NCBI GenBank assembly: GCA_030668875.1
Contig: DAOVER010000002.1
Coordinates: 60,001-92,000 of the forward strand
DNA length: 32,000 bases
From: Candidatus Heimdallarchaeota archaeon
GTDB taxonomy: Archaea; Asgardarchaeota; Heimdallarchaeia; Heimdallarchaeales; Heimdallarchaeaceae
Reading direction: 5' to 3'
Part shown: positions 6,557-30,954 of the stretch, piece after piece
Layout of the letters: each line of letters begins with the position of its first letter
Numbering within the stretch: position 1 is the stretch's first letter
Position numbers and translations under genes: made by a program
The notes under the pieces: generated by a model
Seen by the model: only the letters and a program-made list of their open reading frames with translations
Database searches by the model: none
What the model was told of the DNA's origin: nothing

Positions 6557-7552
6557 ATGCTTATCTGTTTGTTCAAACTTGAAGATGATGGACCAACCAT
6601 AGTCAATATGGTTTCCGATCAGAATGTAGATTTTGATGAGAATGTGACAGAGAAATTTATGTTTTCAGGTTCAATAACCTACTCTCTCATATTTCAAGGA
6701 ATGGTTACAATCGACGATTTACCCTCAAATTTGTATGGTCCCTTCCCTTTTGCATTTACTTCTGGGTTTGTTCAATATGCATTTTCTTTTCTTGCTGAAG
6801 ATAAATCTATCAAAGATCAAAGAATGAAGAAGAAAACTCTGGGTTTAGTTTTAATGCTCGTACCAGAAATGTTAGCACAAATTGATGATTTCAGAGAAGA
6901 ACTTGCAAAAACTCTTATCTATAAGTTCCATAACATTAAAAAAATTGGGGATGTCGATGAGAAATTCCTTGGAAGCATAATACACTCCTACAATAAGATT
7001 CTAACCGATTTAATGGAAAGTAAGCAAGCAGAACTTCTTTCATCTCAATTATTAGAATTTATTCAACAGAAGCCTAAACCTAGCAAAAAGGATTCACTAA
7101 ATTTAGCAATTATTTATCCCAAAGCGTATATTGACATAGTAAAAAAACACTACAATTCTCTCCTATCTTCTCTTCCATATGAAACTACAAATTATTCAGA
7201 AGAGGAAGCTAATATTAGAACTAAAAAGTATAATTTCTCACTAAAGCTTGTCTCAAATGTAAAAGAAGATTTTATAAACGCCCAGAAAGTATTGATTCTT
7301 ATCATAGACGTGTCTGGTAAGAAATACGAGCCTTTCTACAAACTCTTATCAAAACTGAAAAAAGAACTAAAAATTGCTGTTGTTATCTCACTCCCAGATG
7401 ATATTGAGAAAGCTAGTCACCAATATGCAAAATTCTTTACTGGATTACAACGTTACATTAGCGGAATGCCATTCTTCTCGGCAAGTTTTACTACACCATA
7501 TGATTTCAAAACTAAAATGCTTGAAGCTCTGTTCTGGTCACTCTCTGAATGA
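6557..7552 (+). CDS. Longin/uDENN-like N-terminal domain fused to a degenerate Ras-fold (pseudo-GTPase) domain
   Basis: N-terminus ICLFKLEDDGPTIV resembles the first strand plus GP turn of uDENN/longin. LYGPFP..FSF..ED...R motif is shared with 29896..30954. C-terminus keeps Ras strands (NLAIIY, KVLILIIDVS, KIAVVI, PFFSAS) without GxxGxGK or NKxD. Confidence 0.55.
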   Translation: MLICLFKLEDDGPTIVNMVSDQNVDFDENVTEKFMFSGSITYSLIFQGMVTIDDLPSNLYGPFPFAFTSGFVQYAFSFLAEDKSIKDQRMKKKTLGLVLMLVPEMLAQIDDFREELAKTLIYKFHNIKKIGDVDEKFLGSIIHSYNKILTDLMESKQAELLSSQLLEFIQQKPKPSKKDSLNLAIIYPKAYIDIVKKHYNSLLSSLPYETTNYSEEEANIRTKKYNFSLKLVSNVKEDFINAQKVLILIIDVSGKKYEPFYKLLSKLKKELKIAVVISLPDDIEKASHQYAKFFTGLQRYISGMPFFSASFTTPYDFKTKMLEALFWSLSE

Positions 7553-7583
7553 GTTATCTGTTGTTTATATTACAAACACACTT

Positions 7584-8675
7584 TCATTTTGAATATTTTT
7601 CAATGGCATCTAGGTTTACATTTATTCCTAAACCAGGTTGTTTATTTGGTACTGATATGGTACCATCACTATTTAACTCGAATATTGGATCAACTAAATA
7701 ATTTGTATAGTATCTCTCACTTTCGCTTATATCATTAGGCAATGTAAAGGTTGAAAGGCTTGCTACTGCTAGATTCTTTGCTCTTCCAATTCCTGTTTCA
7801 AGCATTCCTCCGCACCAAAGAGGAAAACTATTTTCTTTTGCTAATTCATGAATGTGAAGAGTTTCAGTTATTCCACCAACTCTAGCTGGTTTTACATTTA
7901 TAATTCTAGTAGCATCTGATTCGATTGCAACTCTAGCATCATCCACACTTTTTATTGATTCATCAAGACATATTGGAGTTGCAATTTCTTTCTGTAGCTT
8001 TGCATGATCAAGAATATCATAATACTGCAAAGGTTGCTCAATCATCATCAAGTTGAATCTGTCAAGTGATATGAAAATATCCTTATCTTTGAGTCTGTAG
8101 GCACTGTTTGCGTCAACCATTAAAGGAATATTTGGGTAGACGTCCCTTATTTTCTTTACAATCTCTACATCCCAGTTTGGTTCTATCTTGATTTTGATTC
8201 TTTGATAATTTTTCTCCAAAGCTTTTCCAATTTTTTCTATAAGAATATCTGTATTCTGTTGAATTCCTAATGATATTCCTGAAGGAATTGATTCCTTGGT
8301 TCCCCCGATAAGTTCTTGAAGAGATTTATTGTTCATATGTCCATATAAACCCCAAATAGCATCCTCAATACAGGCTTTGGCCATTTGATTCCCCTTTATT
8401 TGTTGAACAAGTTTCTTGAAATCTCTGGGGTGGTCTAAATCTGTTTCTTTTAACCAAGGAGAAATGAAGTTTGTAATGATGGATTGACAGGAGTCAATTG
8501 TTTCTCCAGAATACCATGGACCTTTTTCTGCAACACACTCTCCATAACCATCGTATCCTTCTGATTGAACTCGAGTAACTAAAATCTCTCTTTCTTGAGT
8601 TACTCCAAAACTAGTCCTGAAAGGATTTCTAAGCTCCATTTTAACATGATATAGTTTTATTGCTTCAATTTTCAT
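7584..8675 (-). CDS. menC: o-Succinylbenzoate synthase / N-succinylamino-acid racemase (NSAR/OSBS subfamily, enolase superfamily)
   Basis: MKIEAIKLYHV...PFRTSFG, KIKI catalytic Lys motif, metal ligands VDAN / EQP / LDES, second Lys in NVKPARVGG, CGGMLETGIG. Start set at ATG 8675 (MKIE) rather than 8735. Confidence 0.9.
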   Translation of the reverse strand: MKIEAIKLYHVKMELRNPFRTSFGVTQEREILVTRVQSEGYDGYGECVAEKGPWYSGETIDSCQSIITNFISPWLKETDLDHPRDFKKLVQQIKGNQMAKACIEDAIWGLYGHMNNKSLQELIGGTKESIPSGISLGIQQNTDILIEKIGKALEKNYQRIKIKIEPNWDVEIVKKIRDVYPNIPLMVDANSAYRLKDKDIFISLDRFNLMMIEQPLQYYDILDHAKLQKEIATPICLDESIKSVDDARVAIESDATRIINVKPARVGGITETLHIHELAKENSFPLWCGGMLETGIGRAKNLAVASLSTFTLPNDISESERYYTNYLVDPIFELNSDGTISVPNKQPGLGINVNLDAIEKYSK

Positions 8676-8715
8676 TTTTATTCGCTCTTTTATTATATTT
8701 TTAATTATTAGAATA

Positions 8716-9567
8716 CTAAGAATCAACAGATTCAAGAATACTTAATACGTGATAAGCCTTCCAAGGTGTTATACTTTTGTCAAGGATAAAATCTATAGTT
8801 GAAAGGCCTTTATCGAAGTAGTTTGTGAGAACCTTCCTCGTTTCTTTTCGCCACTCTTTTGCGAGTTCATTATTGCTTTTCATAATTGTTGTGAAATTAA
8901 TGGGGATTTCAGCAAAAACAATTGTTTCTTGGATATCTAAATCCAATTCTTTGACCTTTAGTATTCCGCTGTTAGAAGTTGTTTTGATTGAATGATAACG
9001 ATCATTATTGATGATTTCTGTATAATCTTCGAAGTCATTGCTTAAGCGTTTCTTAACGTGAGATGAATCGATAAACCAATTGCAGTATAACCTATCGGTA
9101 TCAATACCAATATTCAATTCATCATGCATATCTCCCCAGTATTTAATTTTGTAATTGTTACAAATCGCTCCAAGTTTATGCAGATTTATATAGCAATTTT
9201 TACTTTGGAGAGGATCAAAGGTCCAGTTTATTGTTTTGAAATTTTTCTCCAAAGCCCATTTTCTCTGTTCATGTTTTAGTTGAATACCAATTCCTTTGTC
9301 TTGATGCTCTTTTACAACAGCATTATGGTGTGAATAAATGAAATTGCCATAGGGATCAATTCGCCCCATCCACCCCCATACATAACCTACAATTTCCTGA
9401 TTTAGATAAGCAGCAATAACCACCCCCCCACTTCGATGAGTTGCATAAATTACTCTCTTAGGGACTATTTCTCTGTCTGGAAACCCCCAAGCATTGATTT
9501 GTATATTTTCAATTTTGTTGTACTCACCATAGTCTGTTAGTTCTTTATAGTCAACAGTTTCCTTCAT
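8716..9567 (-). CDS. GNAT N-acyltransferase of the family linked to NSAR/OSBS (putative D-amino-acid N-succinyltransferase)
   Basis: YSHHNAV..EHQDKGIG..LK..QR.WA, WTFDPL...N.YINLHKLGA, YWGDMHDELNIGIDTDRL. Lies 40 nt upstream of, and co-oriented with, the NSAR/OSBS gene. Confidence 0.85.
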   Translation of the reverse strand: MKETVDYKELTDYGEYNKIENIQINAWGFPDREIVPKRVIYATHRSGGVVIAAYLNQEIVGYVWGWMGRIDPYGNFIYSHHNAVVKEHQDKGIGIQLKHEQRKWALEKNFKTINWTFDPLQSKNCYINLHKLGAICNNYKIKYWGDMHDELNIGIDTDRLYCNWFIDSSHVKKRLSNDFEDYTEIINNDRYHSIKTTSNSGILKVKELDLDIQETIVFAEIPINFTTIMKSNNELAKEWRKETRKVLTNYFDKGLSTIDFILDKSITPWKAYHVLSILESVDS

Positions 9568-9651
9568 CAAGCTTTAAAAAAAGTATGTTGATAAAAGATT
9601 TACGCTAAGTTTTGTAATAACTAATGTAAAACCTCTTGAGTTTCTATCTGT

Positions 9652-10938
9652 TTAGCTTAAATCTAGTGATAATACTGTTGAATTAGAGAGAATTTCAAAT
9701 AAGATTTTAGAGAAAGCTAGAGCAAGATTGGTCGGTGTGAACCTTTCTCCTTTAGTATGTCTTCGAATTTTGAACTGAAGTTGTTGAATAATCGAGGTTT
9801 TGTGCTCCTCAATCAAAGTTTCATGATCACTTATGAATTTTGCATAAAGCTTAATGTCTATCAAAGGAAGAGCCATTTGTGGATACTCTTCAAATATTTT
9901 AAACAAAGCATCTTGAATATATTGTAAAAATCGTTGGGGGTCTGCAATATCTTGTATTCCAAATTCCTCAATAGCCAGCCTTCTAAGAACTCGTTCTACA
10001 TTCTTCTCAAGAATTGTTATTTTTTGTTCAGTCAATTCTTTACGCAATTTCAAGGTTTCAACAAGTGTTTTTTCCACTACTGCTAGAATCTGTTCAATCT
10101 TCGAACGTTCTGATAATTCTTTTGTTGGACTATGAAATTGATGTTTGGAAATAGAAAATTGCTCACTAAGTAAAGTTTGTTTTTGTTCTATTTTAGTCTT
10201 CAAAGAATCCATTAATTTATCGAAGTAAGTGTTTATGAATATTTTAGTAATGAGATCGTATAATATATCCTCTCCTTGGGATAATGGATATATACTACAA
10301 AATTCGATGTACAGTTGCCCAGTTGATTTAGCTTTTTCTAGTAACTCATTTTTCTCAAAATAATTTTCTATACTAGATGCAAAGAGGGCTGAAATAAACC
10401 TCAAATCCATTTCAAATTCCCCAGCTTCAAAGCAAAAATTTGCTTCAGAGAATGCAGGTAGAAGATTCCTATTAATTAGAATAGCTGCAATAATATCATA
10501 TTCTATACCCATACCTCCTAGGTCAACCAAACCTTGAATAATTATGTTGGATGCTGAGAAAACAGCTTTTAGACATACAATGAAAGAGGATAATAACCCA
10601 ACAAATTCATCATCAGTAATTTGATTTTTCTTATTTGTTGCTTCAAGTAAAGCTGATATATCTTCTGCATAAGACTGTGGATTGTAATCTTTTACTATGT
10701 CTTCTGTTACAATAATTCCATAAACAGCTAAGATCATATTTTTCTTATGAGGTGAAAGGAATCCAATATCCATCTTTAACTGTTTTTTAAGTTCTCCAAG
10801 GAATGTTGGTTGTGTAATAATGAAGTTCTTAATTTTTGCTTCAAGCTTAGAATATAATCCCTGTACTTCTGTTACAATATCTAGGACGTCTTTTGGTTCG
10901 TAAATTATATCAATAGAATCTTTTAGCAAATCACTCAT
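9652..10938 (-). CDS. Hypothetical, largely alpha-helical protein with a coiled-coil segment, 428 aa
   Basis: Long ORF whose start overlaps the upstream stop by 8 nt (ATGAGTGA), implying translational coupling. No family recognised. Confidence 0.75.
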   Translation of the reverse strand: MSDLLKDSIDIIYEPKDVLDIVTEVQGLYSKLEAKIKNFIITQPTFLGELKKQLKMDIGFLSPHKKNMILAVYGIIVTEDIVKDYNPQSYAEDISALLEATNKKNQITDDEFVGLLSSFIVCLKAVFSASNIIIQGLVDLGGMGIEYDIIAAILINRNLLPAFSEANFCFEAGEFEMDLRFISALFASSIENYFEKNELLEKAKSTGQLYIEFCSIYPLSQGEDILYDLITKIFINTYFDKLMDSLKTKIEQKQTLLSEQFSISKHQFHSPTKELSERSKIEQILAVVEKTLVETLKLRKELTEQKITILEKNVERVLRRLAIEEFGIQDIADPQRFLQYIQDALFKIFEEYPQMALPLIDIKLYAKFISDHETLIEEHKTSIIQQLQFKIRRHTKGERFTPTNLALAFSKILFEILSNSTVLSLDLS

Positions 10939-12154
10939 CGGTCATTCCTCCAGCATTTGCATTGGTTTCTTTCACTAGTTCCTTGTATTCTGAGAGCTGT
11001 TTAACTTTGAGTGAGGGCGTCTGATTCCAATCTTTTAATTTAGATTTTTGTATTGCCTCTCCAAAAGAAAGTTGGTTTTTCACATTTTCCTTAATCTCTC
11101 TCATGATCATTGGCAATGATACTGCAGAGATTAAATCTATGTGTGAATATCTTGTATCAGTTACATATGCAAAAAGATAGATTTCATCTTCTGCTTTCCA
11201 GAAATAGTCAACTATTAACTTTACAGAATCATTTGTGGCTTTTGAATGGAAATTGGCGATAATCGGGAGAAGCACTTTATTTCCAAAAAGATCGTTGGCT
11301 AATCTGTTGAATAAAATTACCAGCTTTTTTGGCATCATAACGTCTTCCACAATCTGAAAAATTTTCTTTGGTTCAAGACTTTTGCTTGTGGAAATATCTT
11401 GTATGCTGTTAGGATAAACAATTGATACTTGATCTAAGTTAATATGAGGAGAAAGTAACCTATATTCTCCTCCACATTCGCAAGAAATTCCTTCATCCTC
11501 TCTAGAGATTAAAACTCGATTACAAGTACCCATACAGAGGTATTCATCTTGGATTATACTTGCTTTAACCATAAATAAAGTTGTTAACATTGGAGACAAA
11601 CCAGTTTTTTCACTCCCCCTCATTAAACTTCTTTCCTCAGAAATCTGCCAATTGTAGAATTTACCTAATTTGTACAGACCATTGTCAAGTTCATCTTTAA
11701 TCGCTATAGAAAATTCACTATTGTCATTTATTTTTGCTGTAACTCTTCGATATATCCCATTTATAGCTTGTCCAATGAATGCAATCTCATTACTTACTTT
11801 TGATAAACTAATTTCCGATAAATCTGTATGTAAGAAATTTACTGTATAAACATCATTAAGAGAATTTTTTGATAAATATATATGGGCTAAATTTGTTTCA
11901 GGTTTTTTGAACTCCCATTCGGCATATTGAACTGAATCAAGTACTATGTTTTCTTCTCTGTTTTCTTTAAACAGTGAAATGAGCTCAAACAGATCCATTA
12001 AATTTTCTTCATTAGCTAATTTTACGAAATCATTTTGAATGTCTTCAGGTCCGAAAAATTTCGCTGCTTGAAGAGGAAGATCATACTCCCCTCGAAGAAT
12101 ATTTGTTATAATCAGATTTAGATGTGATTTATCTGAGTTATTAGTTGTATCCAT
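10931..12154 (-). CDS. Hypothetical protein with an internal four-Cys zinc ribbon
   Basis: YLCMGTCNRVLISREDEGISCECGGEYRL. ATG 12154 is preceded by SD-like GGAG (caggagattacttgATG); TTG 12217 is an alternative start. Confidence 0.75.
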   Translation of the reverse strand: MDTTNNSDKSHLNLIITNILRGEYDLPLQAAKFFGPEDIQNDFVKLANEENLMDLFELISLFKENREENIVLDSVQYAEWEFKKPETNLAHIYLSKNSLNDVYTVNFLHTDLSEISLSKVSNEIAFIGQAINGIYRRVTAKINDNSEFSIAIKDELDNGLYKLGKFYNWQISEERSLMRGSEKTGLSPMLTTLFMVKASIIQDEYLCMGTCNRVLISREDEGISCECGGEYRLLSPHINLDQVSIVYPNSIQDISTSKSLEPKKIFQIVEDVMMPKKLVILFNRLANDLFGNKVLLPIIANFHSKATNDSVKLIVDYFWKAEDEIYLFAYVTDTRYSHIDLISAVSLPMIMREIKENVKNQLSFGEAIQKSKLKDWNQTPSLKVKQLSEYKELVKETNANAGGMTDE

Positions 12155-12284
12155 CAAGTAATCTCCTGATATGGTAAATTTGTAACCTAATTGATAAATT
12201 CTGTTATTGTTTTTCAATTTTTACATAGATTTTTTTGTTAAAATTATGATTTTCAATGAATTTAAAGTAGAGTTTCTTATTAGA

Positions 12285-12800
12285 TTAATCTTTATCTTGT
12301 TCTAGTGCTAGTTCTGCAATTTGTTTGAACATTGGGAAAAGATTTGCATTTTCTTTTGCTGATACTTCAAAGTATGTTGTATCATGTCCTTTTGCAAATT
12401 CTTCTCCTTCCTCCTTAGTGACTTCTCTTCTTTCTTCCAAGTCAATTTTATTACCAGCTATTATGACAGGAATTTTACCGATACCTTCCTCTAGTTTTTC
12501 TAGCCAGAAGGTAAGTTTCTGAAAACTCTCCTTTTTTGTAATATCAAAAATCAATACTGCAACTACTGATCCTCGAAAATATGTTGGGAGAACAGAGTAG
12601 AAACGTTCTTGAGAACCAGAATCACCAATAATGAGTTTGATTTCTTCACCATCGATAATCGTATTCCATATAAGAAAATTTGCACCTAACGTAGGTTGAT
12701 GAGTAATGGGAAAAGAATTTTGTGCTTGACGAAGAGCTATGGATGTTTTCCCTACACCTGGTTCTCCACATAAAGATACTTTGAAGCTTTTTTGCGTCAT
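12285..12800 (-). CDS. Rab-like small GTPase (Ras superfamily, Asgard type, no C-terminal prenylation motif)
   Basis: G1 GEPGVGKT, G2 PTLG, G3 GDSGSQE (atypical), G4 NKID, G5 SAK. RabF-like motifs LGANF, KLIIG, RFYSVL, YFRGS, LIFDIT. Ends ...ELALEQDKD. Confidence 0.93.
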   Translation of the reverse strand: MTQKSFKVSLCGEPGVGKTSIALRQAQNSFPITHQPTLGANFLIWNTIIDGEEIKLIIGDSGSQERFYSVLPTYFRGSVVAVLIFDITKKESFQKLTFWLEKLEEGIGKIPVIIAGNKIDLEERREVTKEEGEEFAKGHDTTYFEVSAKENANLFPMFKQIAELALEQDKD

Positions 12801-12884
12801 ACTATGGTTTCTGAATCCTTTCAAAGTTTTAAAGAGTTTTTATTCTACTAGCAGCAATATAGAAAAGAGTATAAGGAAAAATAA

Positions 12885-12891
12885 TTTAAAC
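12885..12891 (+). promoter_or_regulatory. Putative TATA box (TTTAAAC) with a purine-rich BRE-like run, for the small ORF-radical SAM unit
   Basis: aaggaaaaataaTTTAAAC ends 27 nt before ATG 12919. Confidence 0.45.
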
Positions 12892-12918
12892 ACTGCATTT
12901 CCAACATATTTGAACAGT

Positions 12919-13101
12919 ATGAGTGATGCAGAAAAATGTGGCGATTATGAGATATATTTTGAAAATGATTGGTGGGTAGTTAAAAATACAAAGGAAAACA
13001 AAATCATCGGAAAATTCATCTCAAAAGATGCTGCATTAGATAAAGTAGCTGTTTTTCTTCAAGACGAAGAAGGAAGAATGGAATCTGAATCTGTTTGTTG
13101 A
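12919..13101 (+). CDS. Small 60-aa protein; candidate radical SAM substrate (RiPP precursor) or small partner domain
   Basis: MSDAEKCGDYEIYFENDWWVVKNTKENKIIGKFISKDAALDKVAVFLQDEEGRMESESVC. Stop lies 5 nt before the radical SAM ATG. The track's longer 12739 version overlaps the Rab gene and is unlikely. Confidence 0.7.
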   Translation: MSDAEKCGDYEIYFENDWWVVKNTKENKIIGKFISKDAALDKVAVFLQDEEGRMESESVC

Positions 13102-13106
13102 TGTAG

Positions 13107-14456: not shown

Positions 14457-14465
14457 ACTTATCTT

Positions 14466-14876: not shown

Positions 14877-14973
14877 ATTCTTGGAATACTTCAATCAGTA
14901 AATAAACTTTATTTCAGAGGAAAAGCAAGAAATTAGAAAAAGTTAAGCGCAACATTAACAAGATAGGAGTTGT

Positions 14974-16481: not shown

Positions 16482-16519
16482 ACCATAAGTGAAATTAATA
16501 ACAGATTCAGTGAGAATGA

Positions 16520-17654: not shown

Positions 17655-18554
17655 ATGCAGATGTTTCAAGTTATAACTCAACGGGATGACAAAATCGGTT
17701 ATCATATTCATATGTCAGATATCCCGAGTAAGCTTACCGAAGATTCAATCGTTTTTATGCCAGAGTTATCTACAAAACACCTACCTCATGTAAAATATGT
17801 TTCAAAATATACTCATAAGACAGGAGATATTATTATTAAACTGGTAAGAAGTGATGGAAATGATCCATTCGGTAGACCAAAGGCTCACTCTCATGGATTA
17901 GTTATTCCTTCAGAAGAATATAATCTCAATTCCTTATTGTTTTATGCTTCACCTTTAATAGATACAAATTACTTTGATGAGAAATTTGATGAACCACAAT
18001 TTCTAGATAGTAGTTATTTCAGAAAATCAGAAAATAGAATTCTTGAAAAATTAAATTTGAAGGATATTCGAGAGCTTATAGTTGCAGCTATGATCGACCC
18101 AAAAGTCACACTGCAACCTAATCTAGGGCAAAGAGAACTAATAGAATTAGCAAGTCTAATAGATAAAGCAATACCATTTGAAGCATCATATGACTTTTCT
18201 CTAATAACTTATTCAGACAGCAGCTGTAGTCAACATTTAGTACATAATATCCTTTATTTTTTTGATAAAAATGGAAAAATAGATAATAAATTAATAATAA
18301 AGAACAGAAAACCAAAGATTGAGAAAATAGCTAAGGAAGAAAAGGACTATCTTGATAATTACATTGAACTGATTATCGAAGAAAACTATGAAAAAATTCT
18401 AGAAGAACATGCTAAATGGGTTATAGGAATGTATTACAATGACTATAAAGAATTGCAGAAGGGTTTTACTAAACGTTTCCAGCTTGACATACCTTTCTCA
18501 CGTAGGAACAAATTTCATGCACGTTTGGTAGAATCACTTTCACATTTTGATTAA
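17655..18554 (+). CDS. Hypothetical protein resembling GAP1-N2/GAP1-M (DENN-like) domains
   Basis: GNDPFGRPKAHSHGLVIP matches the G.D..GR....H.L motif of GAP1 N-domains. ELASLIDKAIPFEASYDFSLITYS resembles the LP...SF.TY core of GAP1-M / DENN. Confidence 0.5.
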   Translation: MQMFQVITQRDDKIGYHIHMSDIPSKLTEDSIVFMPELSTKHLPHVKYVSKYTHKTGDIIIKLVRSDGNDPFGRPKAHSHGLVIPSEEYNLNSLLFYASPLIDTNYFDEKFDEPQFLDSSYFRKSENRILEKLNLKDIRELIVAAMIDPKVTLQPNLGQRELIELASLIDKAIPFEASYDFSLITYSDSSCSQHLVHNILYFFDKNGKIDNKLIIKNRKPKIEKIAKEEKDYLDNYIELIIEENYEKILEEHAKWVIGMYYNDYKELQKGFTKRFQLDIPFSRRNKFHARLVESLSHFD

Positions 18555-22323: not shown

Positions 22324-23421
22324 ATGTTTGACCAAACATATATTCTCTTTAAGTATGTCGTAGCTGTAGCACTAATCTTGGGTGGAGTTGCTGCAACATA
22401 CTGGGGAATAAAAAGACAAAATCCATTCTATAAACTATGGGTAGCTTTTCTCATATCTTATGGTATATTTGAAATAATTGAGGTATTAGAAAACCAGAAT
22501 CCAACATCATTGATTCTTTATCGTGCCTTGCAGATTGTTCAAGCAGTTGCCTTAATTATCCTTTTTGCAGCTTGTTTAGAACAATCTATGACTATTACAT
22601 CCAGAGCTAGTAGAATTCTTGCAATCAGTCTATCTACTTTGGCACTTTACTTCATAGTTATTCCGTTAGATGTATCAATAGAGAGTTTCCGAATATTAAC
22701 TATATCAATTTATGGTGTTATTTTTACAGATATTTACGGATTCATTTATGGTTCTTTAATATTAGTAAGCTCCTTCCTCTTGATAGGTGTCTATATACGA
22801 TACTTCAAACTTGCATCTTCATCAAAAAGTAGACGAGTGAAGGTAAAACGGGATATAACCTTACTTCTTATTATACTTCTAATTGGATTTGCAGTTCTAG
22901 TAACTATAAGAAGGAAGATGCTTGAAGCTAATTCTCTAGTTTTTAATATAGCAGATCTTGCATATACCTTCGTTGTTGTCTTAGTAGTTTCATTTTATCA
23001 AAGCCAATCTCTATCTCATGGTATTGAGGCGATTTTAGTTGTAGATAGAGAAGGTAACCCTCTGCTAGGTTACTCCCCTCTCCGAGGTAGAAGGATATCT
23101 TTTGAAGAAAAAATAATAGCAGCTTCAGGATATCTTGCTGGACTTTTTCACTTTGTTCGTGAATATGTTGCTACATCCTCAGAAGAGCAATTCAGAGAAT
23201 TAAAAACTAGTTCCTCTACCATGTCATTCTATGTAGGAGAAAAAATCTTCATTATAATACAAACTAAGATTTCAAGTAAAGTATTAGCTAAAGCCACAAA
23301 ACTGGTTATTAAAGAGTTGGATGGCTATCTCATGGATTTCAAAGCAAATAAAATGCTAACAGAGGAGCAAATTGAACATGTACAAACACTACTAAAAGAA
23401 AATTTTACTCTCATGGCTTAA
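22324..23421 (+). CDS. 7-TM membrane protein with a C-terminal cytoplasmic longin-like domain
   Basis: Seven hydrophobic segments in aa 1-~225, then GIEAILVVDREGNPLL...AASGYLAGLFHFVREY...FRELKT...MSF...IFIII...LVIKELDGYL, the Asgard longin pattern. Confidence 0.7.
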   Translation: MFDQTYILFKYVVAVALILGGVAATYWGIKRQNPFYKLWVAFLISYGIFEIIEVLENQNPTSLILYRALQIVQAVALIILFAACLEQSMTITSRASRILAISLSTLALYFIVIPLDVSIESFRILTISIYGVIFTDIYGFIYGSLILVSSFLLIGVYIRYFKLASSSKSRRVKVKRDITLLLIILLIGFAVLVTIRRKMLEANSLVFNIADLAYTFVVVLVVSFYQSQSLSHGIEAILVVDREGNPLLGYSPLRGRRISFEEKIIAASGYLAGLFHFVREYVATSSEEQFRELKTSSSTMSFYVGEKIFIIIQTKISSKVLAKATKLVIKELDGYLMDFKANKMLTEEQIEHVQTLLKENFTLMA

Positions 23422-23472
23422 TCTTGCTCAACTTCACTAAAACTTATATTTTTCAAAGAATTACTATTACTA

Positions 23473-24789
23473 ATGGTTTCAATTTCATTTGTTCTAGGAA
23501 CAAGACCTGAAATAATAAAATTAGCTCCAATAATACATGAAGCTGAGAAAAGAGAGATTTCCTTTAATATAATCCATACAGGTCAACATTACGACATGGA
23601 AATGTCAGAACAATTCTTGGAATCCTTAAACATTCCTTCTCCTGATATTAATCTAGAAGTAAAATCCTTAACTCTCCATGCTCAACTGGGAAATATGGTA
23701 GAAAAGCTAGGAAACTATTATAAGAATAATAAACATGATATTGTGTTAGCTGTAGGTGATACAATAAGTGTTCTAGCAGCTGCTTTAGTTAGTAATCAAA
23801 ATAATATCCCCTTCGGTCATATTGAAGCTGGTTTGAGATCTTATGATAATACTATGCCTGAAGAAATTAATCGCAGACTTGCAGATAGCATTGCAACACT
23901 TCATTTCGCTCCTTCTGACAGGGCTGTTTTAAACCTCCTAAATGAAGGAATTGAACCTGAAAGAGTATTCAATACAGGAAATACTATAGTAGATGCCATT
24001 CGTATCTATTCTGCGAAATTATCTAAAAGGAAGACTTCACAGGCTGATAAGATTCTTCAAGATGTAAAAGGAGAATATTCCATTTGTACAATCCACAGAG
24101 TATCTAACGTTGAGAACAAAGAGAACTTGTTAGAAATTATCCAAGCCTTAGAATCTTTTAGAGGATATCTGAAGATCTTTTTATTACATCCTAGAACAGA
24201 AAAGAAGCTGCACGAGTATAAATTATACGATAAATTCAAACAGATCGAAGGGTTACATATATACAAGTCTGTAAATTACATGTCAATGTTGAAGCTACTA
24301 ACCGATGAAAAGTGTCAACTCATTATCACCGATTCAGGAGGTATAATTGAAGAAGCGTCGGTATTGAAAATTCCATGTATAACTATCAGACCAAATACAG
24401 AGAGACCAGAAACAGTTGAAGGAGGGGTAAACTTTCTTGTACGACCTAAAGCTCTGGAAATTCTTCAAACTATTGAACTTATTTTGTCAGATGAAGATAT
24501 AATAGAGAAAATGAAAATATTTACAAATCCATACGGTGATGGCTTTAGTAGTGGTAGGATATTGGACATTATTGAAAATAAGCTTACAAAGATGATATTT
24601 CAATCACCGGAATCATATAAATTTGGATCAAAGTCATTTTACCTAATAGATATACAAATACCAATGAAAACAGCTTCTTTAGAAGAATTGTATGGATGTA
24701 CAGTAACTATGGTTTATGGTACGGATGGAGAGCCTTTACCAATACCAAAGAAATTAGAAAAAGGATATAGGGTTAAATTAACACTATAG
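23473..24789 (+). CDS. wecB: UDP-N-acetylglucosamine 2-epimerase (non-hydrolysing) with an extra C-terminal domain of about 60 aa
   Basis: Reads on the + strand (atg gtt tca att... from 23473; TAG at 24787-24789), contrary to the track. Motifs GTRPEIIK, HTGQHYD, GDT, HIEAGLRS, MPEEINR, HPRT, TDSGG..EEA, TERPE, NPYGDG. Confidence 0.95.
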   Translation: MVSISFVLGTRPEIIKLAPIIHEAEKREISFNIIHTGQHYDMEMSEQFLESLNIPSPDINLEVKSLTLHAQLGNMVEKLGNYYKNNKHDIVLAVGDTISVLAAALVSNQNNIPFGHIEAGLRSYDNTMPEEINRRLADSIATLHFAPSDRAVLNLLNEGIEPERVFNTGNTIVDAIRIYSAKLSKRKTSQADKILQDVKGEYSICTIHRVSNVENKENLLEIIQALESFRGYLKIFLLHPRTEKKLHEYKLYDKFKQIEGLHIYKSVNYMSMLKLLTDEKCQLIITDSGGIIEEASVLKIPCITIRPNTERPETVEGGVNFLVRPKALEILQTIELILSDEDIIEKMKIFTNPYGDGFSSGRILDIIENKLTKMIFQSPESYKFGSKSFYLIDIQIPMKTASLEELYGCTVTMVYGTDGEPLPIPKKLEKGYRVKLTL

Positions 24790-25779
24790 CAAGATGTCCC
24801 AGCCATATATTCTAGCTAGTACATTTAACAAAACTCTAACTGCTGCGAAGATAGCTAAAAACCAAAAACCTGTCAGAATAGCTTCTGATTTTATCTTGTG
24901 TAAGAATCTTGGAACTATGTTAGCAGTAATTAAAGTTCCTGCTGCCATACAGATTACTATGCCCCAGTGAATATACGATCCAAGAATTAAACGAAGTCCT
25001 AAACCAAAAGGAGTAGCAAATAGGATGGTGAATGTTGATGTAGCCGTTGCAACTGTTGCAGGAAGCCCTAATCCCATAGTCAGTATTGGTACATAGATAA
25101 CCCCGCCACCTAAACCTAGGAGAGAACCGATAAATCCACCAAAGGTTGCAATTAATACTCCTGGAAGTAACTTTGCTTTGTATTCGAATTTAGTTCCTCT
25201 TTTGTCTTCTAATTTTCTAAGGAGAATAGTGTGTAACCACCATGGTTTATCCTTCTGACTTTCCGCAATTTCGATTTTATTAATTATTTTTTCTTTTACT
25301 GGAACCCCTCGCTTTTTCTTACTCCAGCCAATAATAATTGTTGTAATTTTATATCCTGCAATTAAAAGCATTGTAACAGCAAAGATGATTTGATAAAGAT
25401 CAATATCGATACTCTGTTTCTTAATGAACAAATTTGAGAACAATGCTCCAGAAATAGCTCCTGGAATTGCAAAAATCATAAATGTTATAGCTACTCTGAA
25501 ATCAATAAGTTTTTCTCTAATATAGGAAATAGATCCACTTAAAGCTGTTATAATAATCACTCCTAAAGATGTAACTGTTGCTACATCACCAATTTTTAAA
25601 TTCGGGTCACCTGTAGCAGAGACAAATTTATCTAGAAGAGCAGGAAACCCAATCAGCAGTATAGGGACGTTAAGTAAACCTCCTCCGATACCAAAAGTAG
25701 GAGAAATTGTTCCAGATATTAATCCAGCAACGAACAAGAGAAGATAATGCCACCATTCAAATCCAGCAAATATTTCCAT
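24784..25779 (-). CDS. TauE/SafE (sulfite exporter-like) membrane protein
   Basis: Two repeats of G..S...GIGGG...VP.L (GLISGTISPTFGIGGGLLNVPILL; GFIGSLLGLGGGVIYVPILT), about 8 TM. Convergent 6-nt overlap with wecB (ctatag carries both stop codons). Confidence 0.9.
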   Translation of the reverse strand: MEIFAGFEWWHYLLLFVAGLISGTISPTFGIGGGLLNVPILLIGFPALLDKFVSATGDPNLKIGDVATVTSLGVIIITALSGSISYIREKLIDFRVAITFMIFAIPGAISGALFSNLFIKKQSIDIDLYQIIFAVTMLLIAGYKITTIIIGWSKKKRGVPVKEKIINKIEIAESQKDKPWWLHTILLRKLEDKRGTKFEYKAKLLPGVLIATFGGFIGSLLGLGGGVIYVPILTMGLGLPATVATATSTFTILFATPFGLGLRLILGSYIHWGIVICMAAGTLITANIVPRFLHKIKSEAILTGFWFLAIFAAVRVLLNVLARIYGWDILL

Positions 25780-25864
25780 TAGATGCACCCAATATTAACA
25801 ATTGATTAAAAAGAGTGTTACTTAAAACTTTAATGCTTAAACAAATATCTACAAGTAGAAATTA

Positions 25865-25872
25865 TTTTAAAG
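25865..25872 (+). promoter_or_regulatory. Putative TATA box (TTTTAAAG) for the 25895 gene
   Basis: Ends 22 nt before the ATG; same octamer and spacing as at 6527. Confidence 0.5.
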
Positions 25873-25894
25873 TAGTTCGAAGTAGTAATCTCCT

Positions 25895-26764
25895 ATGAGT
25901 TCAGAAAAGGAAAACGCTATTGCTGAGCAGTTTCTTTCTCTAATCGATAAGAAAAATGTTTGGGAATTAGAAATACTTTCATCAATCATTAATATAAATT
26001 CTCAAAATCTAGCTGATTTCATCAAGGATCTGCCTATGGCTTTCGGATTAGCCGTTTCTGGGAAAAAAGTGCATATTACACCTGAACTTGTACGTGATGT
26101 TACGTCTGAAATTAAAGATACTTTTGTTTCCTGGTACCAGAGTACAGTACCCGGAACATACACCCAGTCTTCTTTGCTATCAAATGAGATTATCAGGGAA
26201 GATTTTGCTATGAATTTAAGATTAGAGAAAAAGGCTAAAGTTAAGATTACTATTTATGGTGATAACTTTCTCGTACAAAGAGTTGTTGACAGATACTTAA
26301 CCAAAGGAAATTTACAAGTTGCATATAGTTATGAGGGGGGATATGAGCCAATAAATGCAGAAAAAACTATAGGTAATGATATTTTAGAATGTCAATTCAG
26401 TGTGATAAATTATAGACGTGAAATATCTTCTCTTGCTAATCTTCTCTTTGAATTATCAGAGGGTTTCTTATTGGTTTTCAACCCCTTGGACAAAATGCAA
26501 GTAGTGAAATTAAACGATATGATAAATCTTCTCTCTCAGAAAAGAAGATCTGATTTATTTGTTACTTTTCTAGGTATAATCACTGAAGAAGAAGGACAAG
26601 AATCAATCACTGAAATCGCAACAGTTCTATCAAAAATGGTTGGGAAACTTGAACATATTCATCAATTTAAAGTGTCTTTTGCAATTCTTTCAGATGAGAG
26701 ACAAATAGAGAGAAAAATAAACGACCTCTTACAAACCTCTCAACTATTGGTTAACAAAGATTGA
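25895..26764 (+). CDS. Winged-helix-like N-terminal domain fused to a P-loop-dead Rab-like domain
   Basis: KVKITIYGDNFLVQRVVDRYLTKGNLQVAYSYEGGYEPINAEKTIGNDILECQFSVINYRREISSLANLLFELSEGFLLVFNPLDK aligns register-for-register with Rab beta1 to beta4, but G1, G3 and G4 are lost. Confidence 0.6.
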   Translation: MSSEKENAIAEQFLSLIDKKNVWELEILSSIININSQNLADFIKDLPMAFGLAVSGKKVHITPELVRDVTSEIKDTFVSWYQSTVPGTYTQSSLLSNEIIREDFAMNLRLEKKAKVKITIYGDNFLVQRVVDRYLTKGNLQVAYSYEGGYEPINAEKTIGNDILECQFSVINYRREISSLANLLFELSEGFLLVFNPLDKMQVVKLNDMINLLSQKRRSDLFVTFLGIITEEEGQESITEIATVLSKMVGKLEHIHQFKVSFAILSDERQIERKINDLLQTSQLLVNKD

Positions 26765-26766
26765 AA

Positions 26767-27453
26767 TTAACCAGGTCTCATTTCTTCATTTTCAACTAAA
26801 TGTGGATAAGCTCGAAATGCAATGTTTATTGGTATGAAACCTATACTTAGAAGTATTATTGCTACAGCTGTTATTCCTATCCCAATAATGTTTATTATTA
26901 CTGCTACTGCTTCGTTTGAAATTAACCAGCTTATGAAGAATAATGTAAAGGATAGAGACTGAACTCCAAACCCTATCGATAGGAAATGTTTTGGATACTT
27001 TACAATGACTCTTTTAAGGTAAAGAGATGCCAACTGTTTCTGAAGGAAGAAAAATCCAATAGTATACGCAATACTGGATAATATAAGACATATTCCGCCA
27101 AGATAGATGAGAATGTCAGTGACTATCCACTCTATTAGGATTAATAGAAACAATCCGAGTAGTAATATCCCAGAACCAACAAAAATGAATATAGCAATCT
27201 GTTTTCCACGCTCCCATGCAAATTCGCTTTCATTCCTAAAATTCAGTGCAGCTTTTCCTATTCCAGCTAAGCCAATAATAATCGGTGCGTATAATATTTG
27301 TGAAGCATCCAATCCGTAAAGTACATCAAAAAGACCATTAGCGATAATGTATCCTCCTGACATAAAGTATAATAAAATACCTAATATTACGTAGAAGAAA
27401 ACAACTAGTATGCTCCCACTAGCAAAAAATTTCGAATTTCTATGAAGACTCAT
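26767..27453 (-). CDS. 6-TM membrane protein (third of three tandem paralogues)
   Basis: About six hydrophobic helices. IGFFFLQKQL...FLSIGF...SIGFIPI motifs are shared with the two upstream genes. SD-like GAGGTG precedes the start. Confidence 0.75.
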   Translation of the reverse strand: MSLHRNSKFFASGSILVVFFYVILGILLYFMSGGYIIANGLFDVLYGLDASQILYAPIIIGLAGIGKAALNFRNESEFAWERGKQIAIFIFVGSGILLLGLFLLILIEWIVTDILIYLGGICLILSSIAYTIGFFFLQKQLASLYLKRVIVKYPKHFLSIGFGVQSLSFTLFFISWLISNEAVAVIINIIGIGITAVAIILLSIGFIPINIAFRAYPHLVENEEMRPG

Positions 27454-27455
27454 TA

Positions 27456-28178
27456 TCACACCTCTTCCTTATCTTTCTTCTCAACCAAAGTTTTTTCTTC
27501 TTCTTCCAATTCAAGAGATTTATCCTGTCGTTGAATATCTTTCCTCCTTAGTAAGTTTAGTGTGCTTGCTAATTGGAAAAGACCAAGAATTATCATAAAT
27601 TGAGCGAATAGGATTAAAGCGAGTATGGTGAATGCTAACCAACTAGGTAATTGTAATTGTTGAGGATAAATATACTCACTATACCAAGACAATACACTTG
27701 GAAAGAATAGAACTAAAAATCCTATGGGAAGAAGAAACTCAGATTTTCTGTTAATATCATTTTTATCTAGCAAGTCATCAAAGAAGAATTTATTTAATGT
27801 AAATGATGCTACTAATGTTACATAAAAAACAATAATTAAAGCTAGCCTTACGAAGATGACAGGAGAAGAATTCCATATCTCTTCTGTACCAAGAATGTAA
27901 TAAAGAATTGTTATGCATATGTCAGATATTGCACTAACTAAAAACATTATACTAATAAGTAACCAAAATTTGAGCTCTCGATTTTCTCTTCCTGCTCGTA
28001 TGATCCCTATTACAAATAGTAGAATCACACAATCAAAAGCTACTGATAGAATCAATGGTAAATTTGGATATGAAACTGCAAGCGGAGTTGTATTGCTTAT
28101 TGTAATTATAGTTTGAATCAAAACCATAGTCCAAGTAGCGTAGAAAAGATGTTTTGCAATATCCTTGGACGTATCCAT
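27456..28178 (-). CDS. 6-TM membrane protein (second of three tandem paralogues)
   Basis: ATG 28178 lies 4 nt after the upstream stop, with SD-like AGGTGA. LLPIGF and ILGLFQL motifs; acidic/basic tail. Confidence 0.75.
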   Translation of the reverse strand: MDTSKDIAKHLFYATWTMVLIQTIITISNTTPLAVSYPNLPLILSVAFDCVILLFVIGIIRAGRENRELKFWLLISIMFLVSAISDICITILYYILGTEEIWNSSPVIFVRLALIIVFYVTLVASFTLNKFFFDDLLDKNDINRKSEFLLPIGFLVLFFPSVLSWYSEYIYPQQLQLPSWLAFTILALILFAQFMIILGLFQLASTLNLLRRKDIQRQDKSLELEEEEKTLVEKKDKEEV

Positions 28179-28182
28179 TTTT

Positions 28183-29190
28183 TCACCTAGTGATGTAAGG
28201 GTTTGTTTCACCACAATTTGAACAAAATACTGCATCATGTTCAAGTTCTAGACCACATTTGACACAGAACATTTTTTTGCCTTTTAATTCTTCAGGAGGA
28301 ATTATTGTGGACTTGTAATCAATTTCGTCTTCTTTTCTTTGTGAGGGAGCAATGGGTCTTTGTCTACTCAAACCTAGCATTGTCTGTGCAGGTTTCTGAG
28401 TTCTTTGAGCCCTTTGTTGAGTCATTGCAGCCTTCCGGGCTTCTTGTTTTTCAAAGAATCCTTCTGGAAGCTTATCTAGAATGCCATAAGCTCGTCGTAA
28501 ATACCAAAAACCCATAATAACCATAACAACAGCTGCAATACCCATGAAATATGCTGTATTCACGAATGCTTCAGATCCTTCATTAGGAACTCTCCTTCCA
28601 TTAACATCAATGTGTGTTACCGAATCTAAAGGTACTACCATGTACATAACAAACCTCACTAATAGCAATGCATATCCAATTGGGAGGGATAATTGACCTT
28701 TGAAGATATTTCTCTTTTCCTGTCTAAATCCATCTAAAACCATTTTCATAAATATAAAACCAGCTAGCAAAGAAACATATGAAACAATAGTCAATATGTC
28801 GCTAGTAAGTTCATTGGAATCTGATGTGAGAATTATATTAGTTACAGTTAGACCATCAATTATATGTCCTGGTAAACTGATTAATCCGCCTATGAATACT
28901 AGAATTGAAGAAAACAACAAATAGATGTTTTTCTCCTCTCTATAGAAGAGAAAGAAACCAACCGCTAACCCTATAATAACTATGTTAGAAACGATATATA
29001 ATGCAACTGAATATAGGCTTATGTCCGCATCTGTATTAAAGAACATTTCAATACCTTTTGCAATCACGATGATCAGTGTAGTCCAAGTTATTATCTTTCT
29101 TGTTCTATTAGAAATTTTTTTCTCGGATTGAACAACTTCTGCAACTGCGATATCTTCACCAGTAAATTGTAGTTTAATTTCTTTTGACAT
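28183..29190 (-). CDS. 6-TM membrane protein with C-terminal zinc ribbon (first of three tandem paralogues)
   Basis: LAGFIFM...SLPIGY...IMGFWYL motifs, a Gln/Arg/Pro linker, then FCVKCGLELEHDAVFCSNCG. Confidence 0.8.
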   Translation of the reverse strand: MSKEIKLQFTGEDIAVAEVVQSEKKISNRTRKIITWTTLIIVIAKGIEMFFNTDADISLYSVALYIVSNIVIIGLAVGFFLFYREEKNIYLLFSSILVFIGGLISLPGHIIDGLTVTNIILTSDSNELTSDILTIVSYVSLLAGFIFMKMVLDGFRQEKRNIFKGQLSLPIGYALLLVRFVMYMVVPLDSVTHIDVNGRRVPNEGSEAFVNTAYFMGIAAVVMVIMGFWYLRRAYGILDKLPEGFFEKQEARKAAMTQQRAQRTQKPAQTMLGLSRQRPIAPSQRKEDEIDYKSTIIPPEELKGKKMFCVKCGLELEHDAVFCSNCGETNPYITR

Positions 29191-29327
29191 CTAAATTTAT
29201 CTTGACTGCCTAATATTTAAATATGCACAATTATGAGCAATTTCAAAGGTATTATTGTGTTTTTGTATAGTATGAATGAAAACAAAAGAGGTAAAGTATA
29301 TAAGTACGTTTTGTCTCTTTTTTTTTG

Positions 29328-29852
29328 ATGAGATTATCTTCCTCTTTGTCGCTGCTAGTTTTTACCTTAGCTTTTTTAAGCGTTCTAACTCCTGCCATGT
29401 ATGATTCTGAGGGATTTGCTCTTAACTGGATTGACATCCATGAATCTCCTGTTCTGTGGATTCTACTTGCAGCAACAATGCTCGTAGGATTACATGATGT
29501 TGAATTACTTTATGGAATAAAGTTTCTGAGAAGCTCAAATAGTAGAATATTACGTATTTTACTCATTGCAGTAGCTGTAGGTATGTCGTACGCTATGGAA
29601 TTATCTGTAAATTACCATTTATCAGGACTTACCTTCTGGACTGGAAGTATCATCTTTCGTTTCCCTGCTAATGCTTCTATACACGATGGTATTGGGATAG
29701 GTTATCATTTGGTTCGTTTGTGCCGTATCATATTGCTCTTTGGCCTTCTCGAAGCTCTTATTGAGAAAGATCCTAAGAAAGGTAGTATCCATATTGAAAA
29801 ATTATATGAAGATTCCTTCACAAAGGATAAGAAGAAGGAAAACAGTTTTTAA
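29328..29852 (+). CDS. Hypothetical membrane protein (about 4 TM)
   Basis: Hydrophobic segments with five His residues near the helices and a charged C-terminal tail. Divergent from the 6-TM operon. Confidence 0.65.
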   Translation: MRLSSSLSLLVFTLAFLSVLTPAMYDSEGFALNWIDIHESPVLWILLAATMLVGLHDVELLYGIKFLRSSNSRILRILLIAVAVGMSYAMELSVNYHLSGLTFWTGSIIFRFPANASIHDGIGIGYHLVRLCRIILLFGLLEALIEKDPKKGSIHIEKLYEDSFTKDKKKENSF

Positions 29853-29874
29853 TTGAAGTTGACCTTACTTCAAT
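29852..29874. promoter_or_regulatory. Perfect 8-bp inverted repeat (terminator or operator candidate)
   Basis: ATTGAAGT-tgacctt-ACTTCAAT directly after the 29328 gene stop and abutting TATAAAA (29874-29880) upstream of the next gene. Confidence 0.4.
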
Positions 29875-29895
29875 ATAAAACCCCATTTGATTGTG

Positions 29896-30954
29896 ATGAC
29901 AGATACAATATTTATTCCCTATGTCTCATTGCTAGTCTTAGATGAGATGGGGATGACTTTAAGAAGTTCTATATCCAACCCAGATATCTCAAGAGAAGAA
30001 ATAATGGGGATGGGAAATTTCTACAGTCCAGTTATATCTGCTTCATCACCCAATCTAGAGATTTATGGACCATTACCCATTCCACATTTTGGGAAATATC
30101 ATCTACTTATTGTGTCTTTTCGCAAAGCTGATTCTGAAAATAGAGTAATGAGATCAAAGGCTACAGACAATTTGTCATTCTGTCAATTACTAATTATCTA
30201 TGACAAAAAATGCGACCAGAAAGTAAAATTTGGTCATAGCAAAATCTATGATACCGTTGAATCTTTCTTACAGCAATTTACAGACATCAAACAAATAACT
30301 GATAATAGTTTGATTTTTCTAAGTGAGTCGCTTATTGAAAACATCTTGCTAGATGAACAGATAAAGTCAAAGAGTTTAGAGGATGTTGTACGTGACATAG
30401 CTTCTCGTTTTAATACAATTCAACAAATTTCTAACCTTCTTAATCGAAGAACCAAAATAGGGATTATTACTTCTGACTCGCTTTCTTATAACCTAATAAT
30501 TCAGTCCCTTTTCCATTATCAGAATATAGATTTTATCTATGAATTTAGTAGAAATGAGTTTATTAGCAGAATTGATACATATTTTATGAGAATAGTGTTG
30601 ACACTTCTATTTGACTTAGAAACGATTGCTGGAAAAGAGTATTTTAGAGAGATGGACTATTATATCTATTTAGCTTCATGTGAGGATATAACATCAGCTA
30701 CTAGACATATAAGAAATATTGATGAATTGAAAAAACGTGATCCTAAATCAAAAATCTTCTTAGTTACCTTTGAGAAAGCAGAGCAAATAGATTTAAACGT
30801 TAAAAAGGCTCTTTTTGCTGAATCAGAACGTAGGAAGAATGTTCAACTAATGATAACGGTTGGAGATTTGTTTAGAACTTTAGACAATGCGGTGTATTTG
30901 ATACTTAACGATGTATTAGAGTTAAGAAATATTCTTCTTTCAACAAATATTTGA
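29896..30954 (+). CDS. Longin/uDENN-like domain fused to a degenerate Ras-fold domain (paralogue of 6557..7552)
   Basis: IYGPLPIP...LIVSFRKADSENRVMR...QLLIIY. C-terminus RTKIGII...YFREMDYYIYL...SKIFLVTFEK follows Ras strand order with no Walker A motif. Confidence 0.55.
   Translation: MTDTIFIPYVSLLVLDEMGMTLRSSISNPDISREEIMGMGNFYSPVISASSPNLEIYGPLPIPHFGKYHLLIVSFRKADSENRVMRSKATDNLSFCQLLIIYDKKCDQKVKFGHSKIYDTVESFLQQFTDIKQITDNSLIFLSESLIENILLDEQIKSKSLEDVVRDIASRFNTIQQISNLLNRRTKIGIITSDSLSYNLIIQSLFHYQNIDFIYEFSRNEFISRIDTYFMRIVLTLLFDLETIAGKEYFREMDYYIYLASCEDITSATRHIRNIDELKKRDPKSKIFLVTFEKAEQIDLNVKKALFAESERRKNVQLMITVGDLFRTLDNAVYLILNDVLELRNILLSTNI

Follow-up and report, generated by a model that had tools for sequence, protein, structure and literature searches.

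The longin domains of FLCN, NPRL2, SMCR8 and C9orf72 and of one Heimdallarchaeial longin class possess a Gly-Pro (GP) motif located before strand 2 and an arginine finger, a combination reported to be specific to longins of the GTPase-activating protein (GAP) type (PMC12290439). G domains fused to longin domains have already been described in Asgard archaea (Tran et al., 2024, PMC10933270; Zhu et al., 2025, PMC11914678), and the latter study states explicitly that the native regulators of their small GTPases have yet to be identified. Because GTPase genes are rarely found in operons with longin or roadblock genes (Tran et al., 2024), pairing a regulator with its client is difficult. We analyzed a 32,000-nucleotide stretch of a Candidatus Heimdallarchaeota archaeon genome, referred to here as the window (contig C40:60001-92000 of a 3.23 Mb assembly consisting of 99 contigs with a G+C content of ca. 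32%), in which six candidate GTPase-related genes are found. According to structure prediction, two of these genes, P0001 and P0003, encode distant paralogues of a two-domain family present across Heimdallarchaeia that combines a folliculin/NPRL2-like longin with a small-GTPase fold lacking nucleotide-binding motifs (dead G domain).

P0001 (6557..7552, + strand) encodes a 331 amino acid protein consisting of a longin-like N-terminus, a helical linker and a motif-less C-terminus with a small-GTPase fold. The 352 amino acid P0003 (29896..30954, + strand) is composed of a longin domain, a helical linker and a motif-less Arf/Rab-like fold. Both genes are single-copy and conserved across Heimdallarchaeaceae; of the 30 family genomes, 29 contain P0001 and all contain P0003, whose matches are only weak in g3 and g4, two of the five genera (g1 to g5) compared. 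Homologues of P0003 begin at the ATG of residue 4, and in the AlphaFold2 model the longin domain spans residues 4-154 with a β-β-α-β-β-β-α-α topology. Its structural matches are the Lokiarchaeal longin 8yqg (Z 13.8), Lst4 (12.6), FLCN (10.4), C9orf72 (10.3), VAMP7 (9.7) and NPRL2/3 (9.4), which places it closest, among eukaryotic proteins, to Lst4, FLCN, C9orf72 and NPRL2/3 (Z 9-12.6). The nearest models in the ESM Atlas are an Asgard cluster of 341 amino acids with Arf/Ras Pfam domains, C9orf72, a Heimdall cluster with a Folliculin Pfam domain and SMCR8. The N-terminal domain of P0001 (residues ~1-160) aligns to the P0003 longin with an hhalign probability of 68% (E 4.6e-5).

Family alignments of 37 P0001 sequences (A1) and 21 P0003 homologues (A2) reveal features that may connect these longins to the GAP type. 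In P0001, G12-P13, located just before strand 2, and R89 are invariant in all 37 homologues. In P0003, R86 is invariant in all 21 homologues while G19-M20 takes the place of Gly-Pro. Both arginines are located in the strand 4-5 loop. The same two types can be distinguished among remote homologues from other Heimdallarchaeia, where every sequence read retains a D-x-R loop and an LYGP motif and the P0001-like ones also share the Gly-Pro. A longin of this LYGP/D-x-R type is also fused to a response-regulator receiver domain detected by Pfam in the genome of the window (L008, C1:6165-7019), and further copies are joined to other sensor-type N-terminal regions (L065 in G001:C1, L061 and L063), which suggests that Heimdallarchaeia use it as a general output module for signalling.

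The C-terminal domains of P0001 and P0003 are predicted to adopt small-GTPase folds. Residues 178-331 of P0001 were modelled by AlphaFold2 from the 37-sequence alignment with a predicted local distance difference test score (pLDDT) of ~85-90 and show the Ras-type succession of six strands and five helices, with helix 1 followed by a hairpin. The 50 top-ranking PDB structures for this domain are without exception TRAFAC small GTPases with Z 11-13 (Foldseek, VIA-align), including Arf1 (Z 12.9), the Lokiarchaeal RagA-like protein 8yl2 (Z 12.8, root-mean-square deviation 3.0 over 142 residues), MglA (12.4) and Gtr1 (11.9). For Arf1 and 8yl2, 142-146 residues of the predicted model can be aligned. 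Residues 164-344 of P0003 resemble Arf and Rab proteins in the predicted model (Z 10.5 to Arf1, 145 residues aligned), with the site of the expected strand 2-3 hairpin (residues 208-246) being poorly modelled at a pLDDT of ~30. DENND10, C9orf72, FLCN and FNIP2 are among the structural matches as well and align to the longin lobe, while the second lobe matches GTPases. None of the motifs GxxxxGK[ST], DxxG and NKxD is found in P0001, in P0003 or in the consensus of either family, and the loss of these motifs suggests that the dead G domains are nucleotide-free.

Sequence-based searches do not reveal this relationship. P0001 and P0003 have no Pfam match at all and no match to Ras hidden Markov models (HMMs), their C-terminal domains could be aligned by hhalign neither to one another nor to GTPases, and profile searches of alignments A1 and A2 against PDB sequences returned chance matches only. 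BLASTP among P0001, P0002 and P0003 gave nothing significant and an ESM Atlas feature search with P0001 yielded no usable match. The original prediction, made from the DNA sequence, had proposed that folds of the regulator type are fused to dead small-GTPase folds and that annotation based on P-loops would miss such proteins; the fusion is borne out by P0001 and P0003 at the level of predicted structure (AlphaFold2 models, PDB comparison with Z 10-14), and Pfam-based annotation does miss both proteins. It had counted three Ras folds without P-loops, two of which are supported by predicted structures (P0001 and P0003) and the third (P0002) by profile comparison and a half-decayed paralogue only. 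Of its three longin/uDENN-like domains, that of P0003 stands, that of P0001 stands in part and that of P0004, for which there are weak signals only, is not confirmed. Taken over all six genes, the earlier observation is largely right for four.

The closest described architectures are the Asgard fusions of longin or roadblock domains with GTPases (PMC10933270), including AArfs with an N-terminal longin (PMC11914678). P0001 and P0003 share with them the combination of a longin and an Arf/Rag-like G domain in ca. 340 amino acids. In contrast to the described fusions, which are detectable by Pfam and carry GTPase motifs, they lack G1, G3 and G4 and match no GTPase profile. The family represents a motif-less variant of known Asgard longin-GTPase architectures, the complete loss of nucleotide motifs being what differs. 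A full-text literature search for pseudoGTPase and Asgard together returned no paper. Compared with the longins of FLCN, NPRL2, SMCR8 and C9orf72 (PMC12290439), P0001 likewise possesses an invariant Gly-Pro before strand 2, and both proteins possess an invariant arginine in the strand 4-5 loop. They differ from the FLCN/NPRL2 type in having no match to Pfam Folliculin, in the Gly-Met of P0003 and in a second lobe that is nearer to small GTPases than to DENN lobes.

In other Heimdallarchaeia, relatives of P0003 are coupled to a live Arf-family GTPase. Class-wide profile searches identified P0003-like proteins of 350-365 amino acids, all without a P-loop, in family f7 (G075-G078) and in genera g3 and g4. 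In six genomes (G075, G076, G077, G078, G003 and G004) a live Arf-family gene directly precedes the P0003-like gene, overlapping it or separated from it by a few bases. The encoded GTPase is 200 amino acids long, contains G[AS]SG[AS]GKT, DVGGQ, NKQD and SAK motifs together with a conserved MSWLxRIFxRK N-terminus, and is closest to Arl3 and the Asgard ArfR structures 8oul and 8ouk. The pair is part of a four-gene same-strand cassette with overlaps of a few codons that encodes a protein with 6-8 transmembrane (TM) segments, a soluble protein of ~300 amino acids, the Arf-family GTPase and the longin/dead-G protein (L049 in G004:C95, positions 2516-6068; L066, L067, L071 and L073 in G076, G077, G075 and G078, respectively). 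The first two genes of the G004 cassette are found in a different order. P0003 is a member or close paralogue of the last gene of this cassette (longin HMM E 1e-17 to 1e-26). In family f6, a P0001-like protein is encoded convergently to a different Arf-like gene. This repeated gene coupling in other lineages ties the longin/dead-G family to live GTPases.

The Arf partner is present in the cassette genomes and missing from the genus studied here. It is absent from all 23 genomes of this genus (g1) and from both g2 genomes, and the gene upstream of P0003 in the window encodes the membrane protein P0124 and not a live Arf GTPase. In g5, an Arf orthologue (G005:C1:651467-651817 and G006:C1:741093-741470) matches over residues 1-126 only and contains in-frame stop codons; this gene is probably decaying. 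The membrane and soluble proteins of the cassette also show no detectable similarity to P0004 and P0005 of the window, and the equation of P0005 with the ~300 amino acid soluble protein and of P0004 with the cassette membrane protein was rejected (hhalign <1%).

P0124 (29325..29852, + strand) is a small membrane protein with ~4 TM segments according to hydropathy. Its gene always precedes P0003 on the same strand, with a gap of 43 nucleotides (nt) in the window, and the two genes are adjacent in g1, g2 and g5, persisting through the rearrangements seen in g5. On the other side of P0124, three polytopic membrane proteins, P0121, P0122 and P0123 (26767..29190, - strand), the last with a C-terminal zinc ribbon, were recognized from translations and hydropathy. 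Their genes remain beside P0004 and/or P0003 in all four genera with readable loci (g1, g2, g4 and g5).

The window contains one live GTPase. P0006 (12285..12824, - strand) was predicted earlier to be an intact Rab-like GTPase and this description holds, with a Pfam Ras match of 1.5e-41 (142 bits against a gathering cut-off of 21.6 bits) and Rab30, Rab21 and Rab2 as best solved relatives. Rab6 is also among the top scorers. As in the Rab family, G1 (GEPGVGKT), G2, G4 (NKID) and G5 (SAK) are intact in the translation. P0006 departs from that family in two respects. Its G3 reads DSGSQE instead of the canonical DxxGQ, placing a serine at the position equivalent to Gly60 of Ras and a glycine one position early while retaining the catalytic glutamine, a D[ST]GSQE variant common to all five orthologous sequences read, P0006 and four others (L016, L014, L050 and L051), and its C-terminus (EQDKD) lacks a prenylatable cysteine. 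Translation likely starts at the ATG of residue 8, near position 12803. Judged by its motifs, P0006 is a GTPase of the working Rab-like type. In g3 and g4 (G003 and G004), the four genes that separate P0001 from the Rab-like gene in the window are absent and P0001 and P0006 are convergent neighbours only 37-85 nt apart.

P0002 (25895..26764, + strand, 289 amino acids) likely combines a winged helix with a decayed Ras domain. In alignment A3, its N-terminal part is winged-helix-like and the strands of its C-terminal part (residues ~112-289) line up with Ras; no G motifs are found in this C-terminal domain. The C-terminal half is in register with Ras proteins of the same genome (hhalign 34%, E 4e-4, 114 columns), P0002 also aligns with the Rag-like proteins of this genome (65%, E 6e-5, 61 columns), and its PDB profile matches to Ypt51 and RABF2b are in register and below threshold. 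The paralogue P0125 (contig C89) shares the N-terminal domain with P0002 (hhalign 63%) and still gives a Pfam Ras match of 2.9e-9; its P-loop is half decayed (GEERVGKQ) and its NKID intact. Descent of P0002 from the lost Arf partner, considered because of complementary phyletic patterns, was rejected, as hhalign gives 0.1% to the partner Arf compared with 65% to Rag-like and 34% to Ras-like proteins. A complex prediction for P0003 and the G-like domain of P0002 scored 0.01, which gives no verdict and speaks neither for nor against binding. P0002 has no orthologue in g3 and g4, two genera that also contain no more than distant relatives of P0003. The g5 orthologue (G005:C1:1074943-1075521, - strand) is a 192 amino acid frame without the winged helix that lies tail-to-tail with P0003 at a distance of 33 nt.

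We favor the reading that the GTPase-related genes of the window are independent members of an expanded small-GTPase machinery and not one system, with the longin/dead-G proteins regulating live GTPases, and assign it a probability of roughly 55%. By analogy with FLCN and NPRL2, the longin domain of P0001 and P0003 would probably dock on a live small GTPase and regulate it, either as a GAP or as a guanine nucleotide exchange factor (GEF) or platform, and the conserved arginine of the strand 4-5 loop may act in this regulation as it does in those two proteins. The dead G domain would probably provide a fixed docking or pairing surface, comparable to the inactive partner of a GTPase dimer. The client in other Heimdallarchaeia would be the dedicated Arf-family GTPase encoded by the preceding gene. 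The present genus would have lost that Arf gene, and P0003 is probably co-transcribed with P0124 instead. Because of this probable co-transcription, the polytopic membrane-protein neighbours and P0002, P0003 probably works at the membrane, and would probably do so together with P0124. For P0001, the most likely client would be the Rab-like P0006, its convergent neighbour in sister genera.

Several observations weigh against this reading. R89 and R86 are putative arginine fingers, proposed from their conservation and their position in the strand 4-5 loop, and the Gly-Met of P0003 departs from the GP motif. Part of the longin-like domain of P0001 (residues 1-71) was modelled at a pLDDT of only ~40. 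Pfam Folliculin (PF11704) matches neither P0001 nor P0003 by hmmscan and finds nothing when all six frames of the genome are searched at E 1, so membership of the Folliculin family is not demonstrated. The Arf-coupled relatives share ~22% identity with P0003 and may be paralogues, and the C-terminal halves cannot be aligned by HMM. As for gene context, the convergent adjacency of P0001 and P0006 is not co-transcription, the Rab-like gene is missing at the P0001 locus of g5, and the whole window is collinear in g1 (G022) and g2 (G001), metabolic genes included, indicating that proximity is mostly inherited order.

An unlikely alternative is that P0001 and P0003 have ceased to act on GTPases in this genus and serve as adaptors in membrane trafficking or signalling, with longins that bind membrane or SNARE-like partners and a dead G domain that is a remnant. 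The loss of the dedicated Arf partner in g1 and g2, the pairing of P0003 with a small membrane protein between polytopic membrane-protein flanks and the fusion of the same longin type to receiver or sensor-type N-termini elsewhere, which suggests a general output module, all fit such adaptors. The strong conservation of the invariant arginine and of the GP motif argues against them, as do the live Rab-like neighbour of P0001 in four of five genera and the ~38 candidate client GTPases still encoded in the genome.

A bolder proposal, which we hold to be quite doubtful, would make the longin/dead-G proteins native regulators of Asgard Arf- and Rab-like GTPases and forerunners of the two-lobed GAPs of the FLCN/NPRL2/SMCR8 type, acting through their arginine in the manner of folliculin and GATOR1. 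In this genus, the Arf GTPase would have been lost and the module rewired to membrane proteins and P0002. If true, most of the resulting switch platform would consist of inactive G domains.

On the reading taken from the original prediction, the six genes are one dispersed toolkit, and the lone Rab-like GTPase of the region would be under the joint control of the longin, pseudo-GTPase and GAP1-like proteins. We consider this improbable. In the genera with sufficiently long contigs (g1, g2 and g5) the six genes do lie within one block of 25-47 kb, the g3 and g4 loci being on short separate contigs, and the deletions in g3 and g4 place P0001 beside P0006 and P0005 beside P0004. However, unrelated genes of the block (radical SAM, DUF123, TPR, TauE, hydrolase, epimerase and M14 peptidase) are kept equally well. 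Since every window gene keeps its order in g1 and g2, conserved order is uninformative about the GTPase-related genes, and the comparison with relatives proposed as a check on the toolkit thus found an order that is retained and unspecific. The six genes are spread over both strands in at least five transcription units according to the list of open reading frames, which agrees with the caveat in the same prediction that they do not form one operon. In addition, P0006 is missing at the g5 locus, and g3 and g4 possess neither P0002 nor a close P0003.

GTPase density gives no indication of a dedicated locus either. The genome contains 38 Ras-family matches in 3.23 Mb, all but P0125 with a P-loop, and one GTPase in the window is therefore ordinary given an average of ~0.4 per 32 kb. 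A denser cluster is found elsewhere in the same genome (C18:1328-24802), where five Arf/Rag-like GTPases are encoded within 25 kb. Four of these five carry C-terminal extensions of ~120-140 amino acids that are roadblock-like by position, and the cluster also encodes a 438 amino acid protein with a C-terminal LYGP-type longin.

Gene order across genera instead hints at two loose neighbourhoods, one consisting of P0001 and the Rab-like gene and the other of P0003, P0002 and the membrane-protein group. In g4, where P0002, P0124 and P0003 are missing, the genes directly after P0005 are P0004, TauE and the three membrane-protein genes. A compact block in g5 comprises P0004, the three membrane proteins, P0124, P0003, the P0002 orthologue without winged helix and TauE.

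Equally improbable is a reading of the P0001 and P0003 C-termini as generic three-layer α/β folds (flavodoxin-like, SGNH-like or a DENN-type lobe), which would make pseudo-GTPase a misnomer and remove any link to GTPase signalling: the lack of significant sequence similarity to any GTPase (hhalign <5%), a flavodoxin in 33rd place among the Foldseek matches of P0001, the presence of SGNH hydrolases and a de novo protein among those of P0003 and the poorly modelled hairpin site of P0003 would fit, but the Ras-like strand order and uniform small-GTPase matches of P0001, the same-sized Asgard protein with a real Arf/Ras domain that forms the Atlas cluster nearest to P0003 and the live Arf genes adjoining the genes of relatives do not.

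P0004 and P0005 may or may not belong to the GTPase machinery. P0004 (22324..23421, + strand) consists of ~7 hydrophobic segments followed by a 140 amino acid cytoplasmic domain that is possibly of the roadblock or longin type. Matches of this tail are weak, with hhalign giving 28% to the roadblock proteins of the genome (E 6e-4, 35 columns) and 5% to the P0003 longin (122 columns), and Pfam Robl_LC7 does not match P0004. The assignment of P0004 as a longin protein is consequently weak.

P0005 (17655..18554, + strand) is a soluble protein of ~297 amino acids and a candidate distant GAP1-like protein. The protein is retained by all five genera, its gene always being divergent from a TPR gene, and alignment A4 shows the conserved motifs DG.D.FGR....H and D.AIPP. 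Among 1.8 billion representatives scanned in full with HMMER, relatives number only 13. Translation probably starts at M3 (ATG at 17661), homologues beginning with MFQ. In several relatives an in-frame TAG takes the place of residue 2, exclusively in matches that begin at query residue 2; we tentatively read this TAG as a stop codon just before the true start M3 and not as recoding.

The identity of P0005 as a GAP1 protein is suggested by a language-model search, whose nearest neighbours are the GAP1-N1, GAP1-N2 and GAP1-M clusters (score 0.98) and which we treat as a lead only. The Pfam models GAP1-N1, GAP1-N2 and GAP1-M match neither P0005 nor ten distant homologues at E 1, and a six-frame search with these models found nothing at the locus at E 10. 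The earlier description of the gene product as GAP1/DENN-like is thus left with the language-model match for GAP1 and with no evidence for DENN, and the eLife paper that defines GAP1 makes no mention of DENN or longin. In the DO-GTPase/GAP1 conflict systems of bacteria (Kaur et al., 2020, PMC7159879), stand-alone GAP1 proteins resemble P0005 in size, and its nearest language-model neighbours are clusters with GAP1 domains. In contrast to those systems, there is no GAP1 Pfam match here, no DO-GTPase above noise in the genome and no FNIII or GASH partner. The neighbours of P0005 are TPR, DUF123 and LVIVD genes, and it is a conserved, single-copy gene in a stable neighbourhood instead of a variable defence island. 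A distant homologue, P0116, has housekeeping neighbours (aIF5B and TFB) and is uninformative.

The remaining genes of the window provide context. Interspersed with the GTPase-related genes are genes for enolase-superfamily, GNAT, two radical-SAM, DUF123, TPR, LVIVD, M14 peptidase, UDP-GlcNAc 2-epimerase and TauE proteins. All homologues of the orphan proteins of the window are labelled Heimdallarchaeaceae or Heimdallarchaeota. Directly downstream of the Rab-like gene P0006 lie P0119 and P0120 (9652..12217, - strand), which encode 428 amino acids each and have no match in a Pfam scan. P0119 carries a zinc-ribbon-like CxxxC...CxC motif. Both genes are on the same strand as P0006 with short gaps or overlap, their order is maintained in g1, g2 and g5, and they are retained in g5 despite the loss of the GTPase gene. 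The GNAT and enolase-superfamily genes (7584-9570) come after them. Upstream of P0001, an 850 amino acid protein with a C-terminal PCI-type winged helix (Pfam PCI 4.8e-6) is encoded at 3940-6492 (+ strand), its gene ending 64 nt before P0001. This same-strand pairing is present in g1 and g2 and absent in g5.

The window is of less value for studying the longin/dead-G family than the intact cassette of its relatives, as it is not a dedicated locus and the Arf partner is missing. Censuses of Asgard genomes based on P-loops or Pfam undercount proteins derived from G domains. The longin/dead-G family provides concrete protein pairs for GAP and GEF assays and for binding assays.

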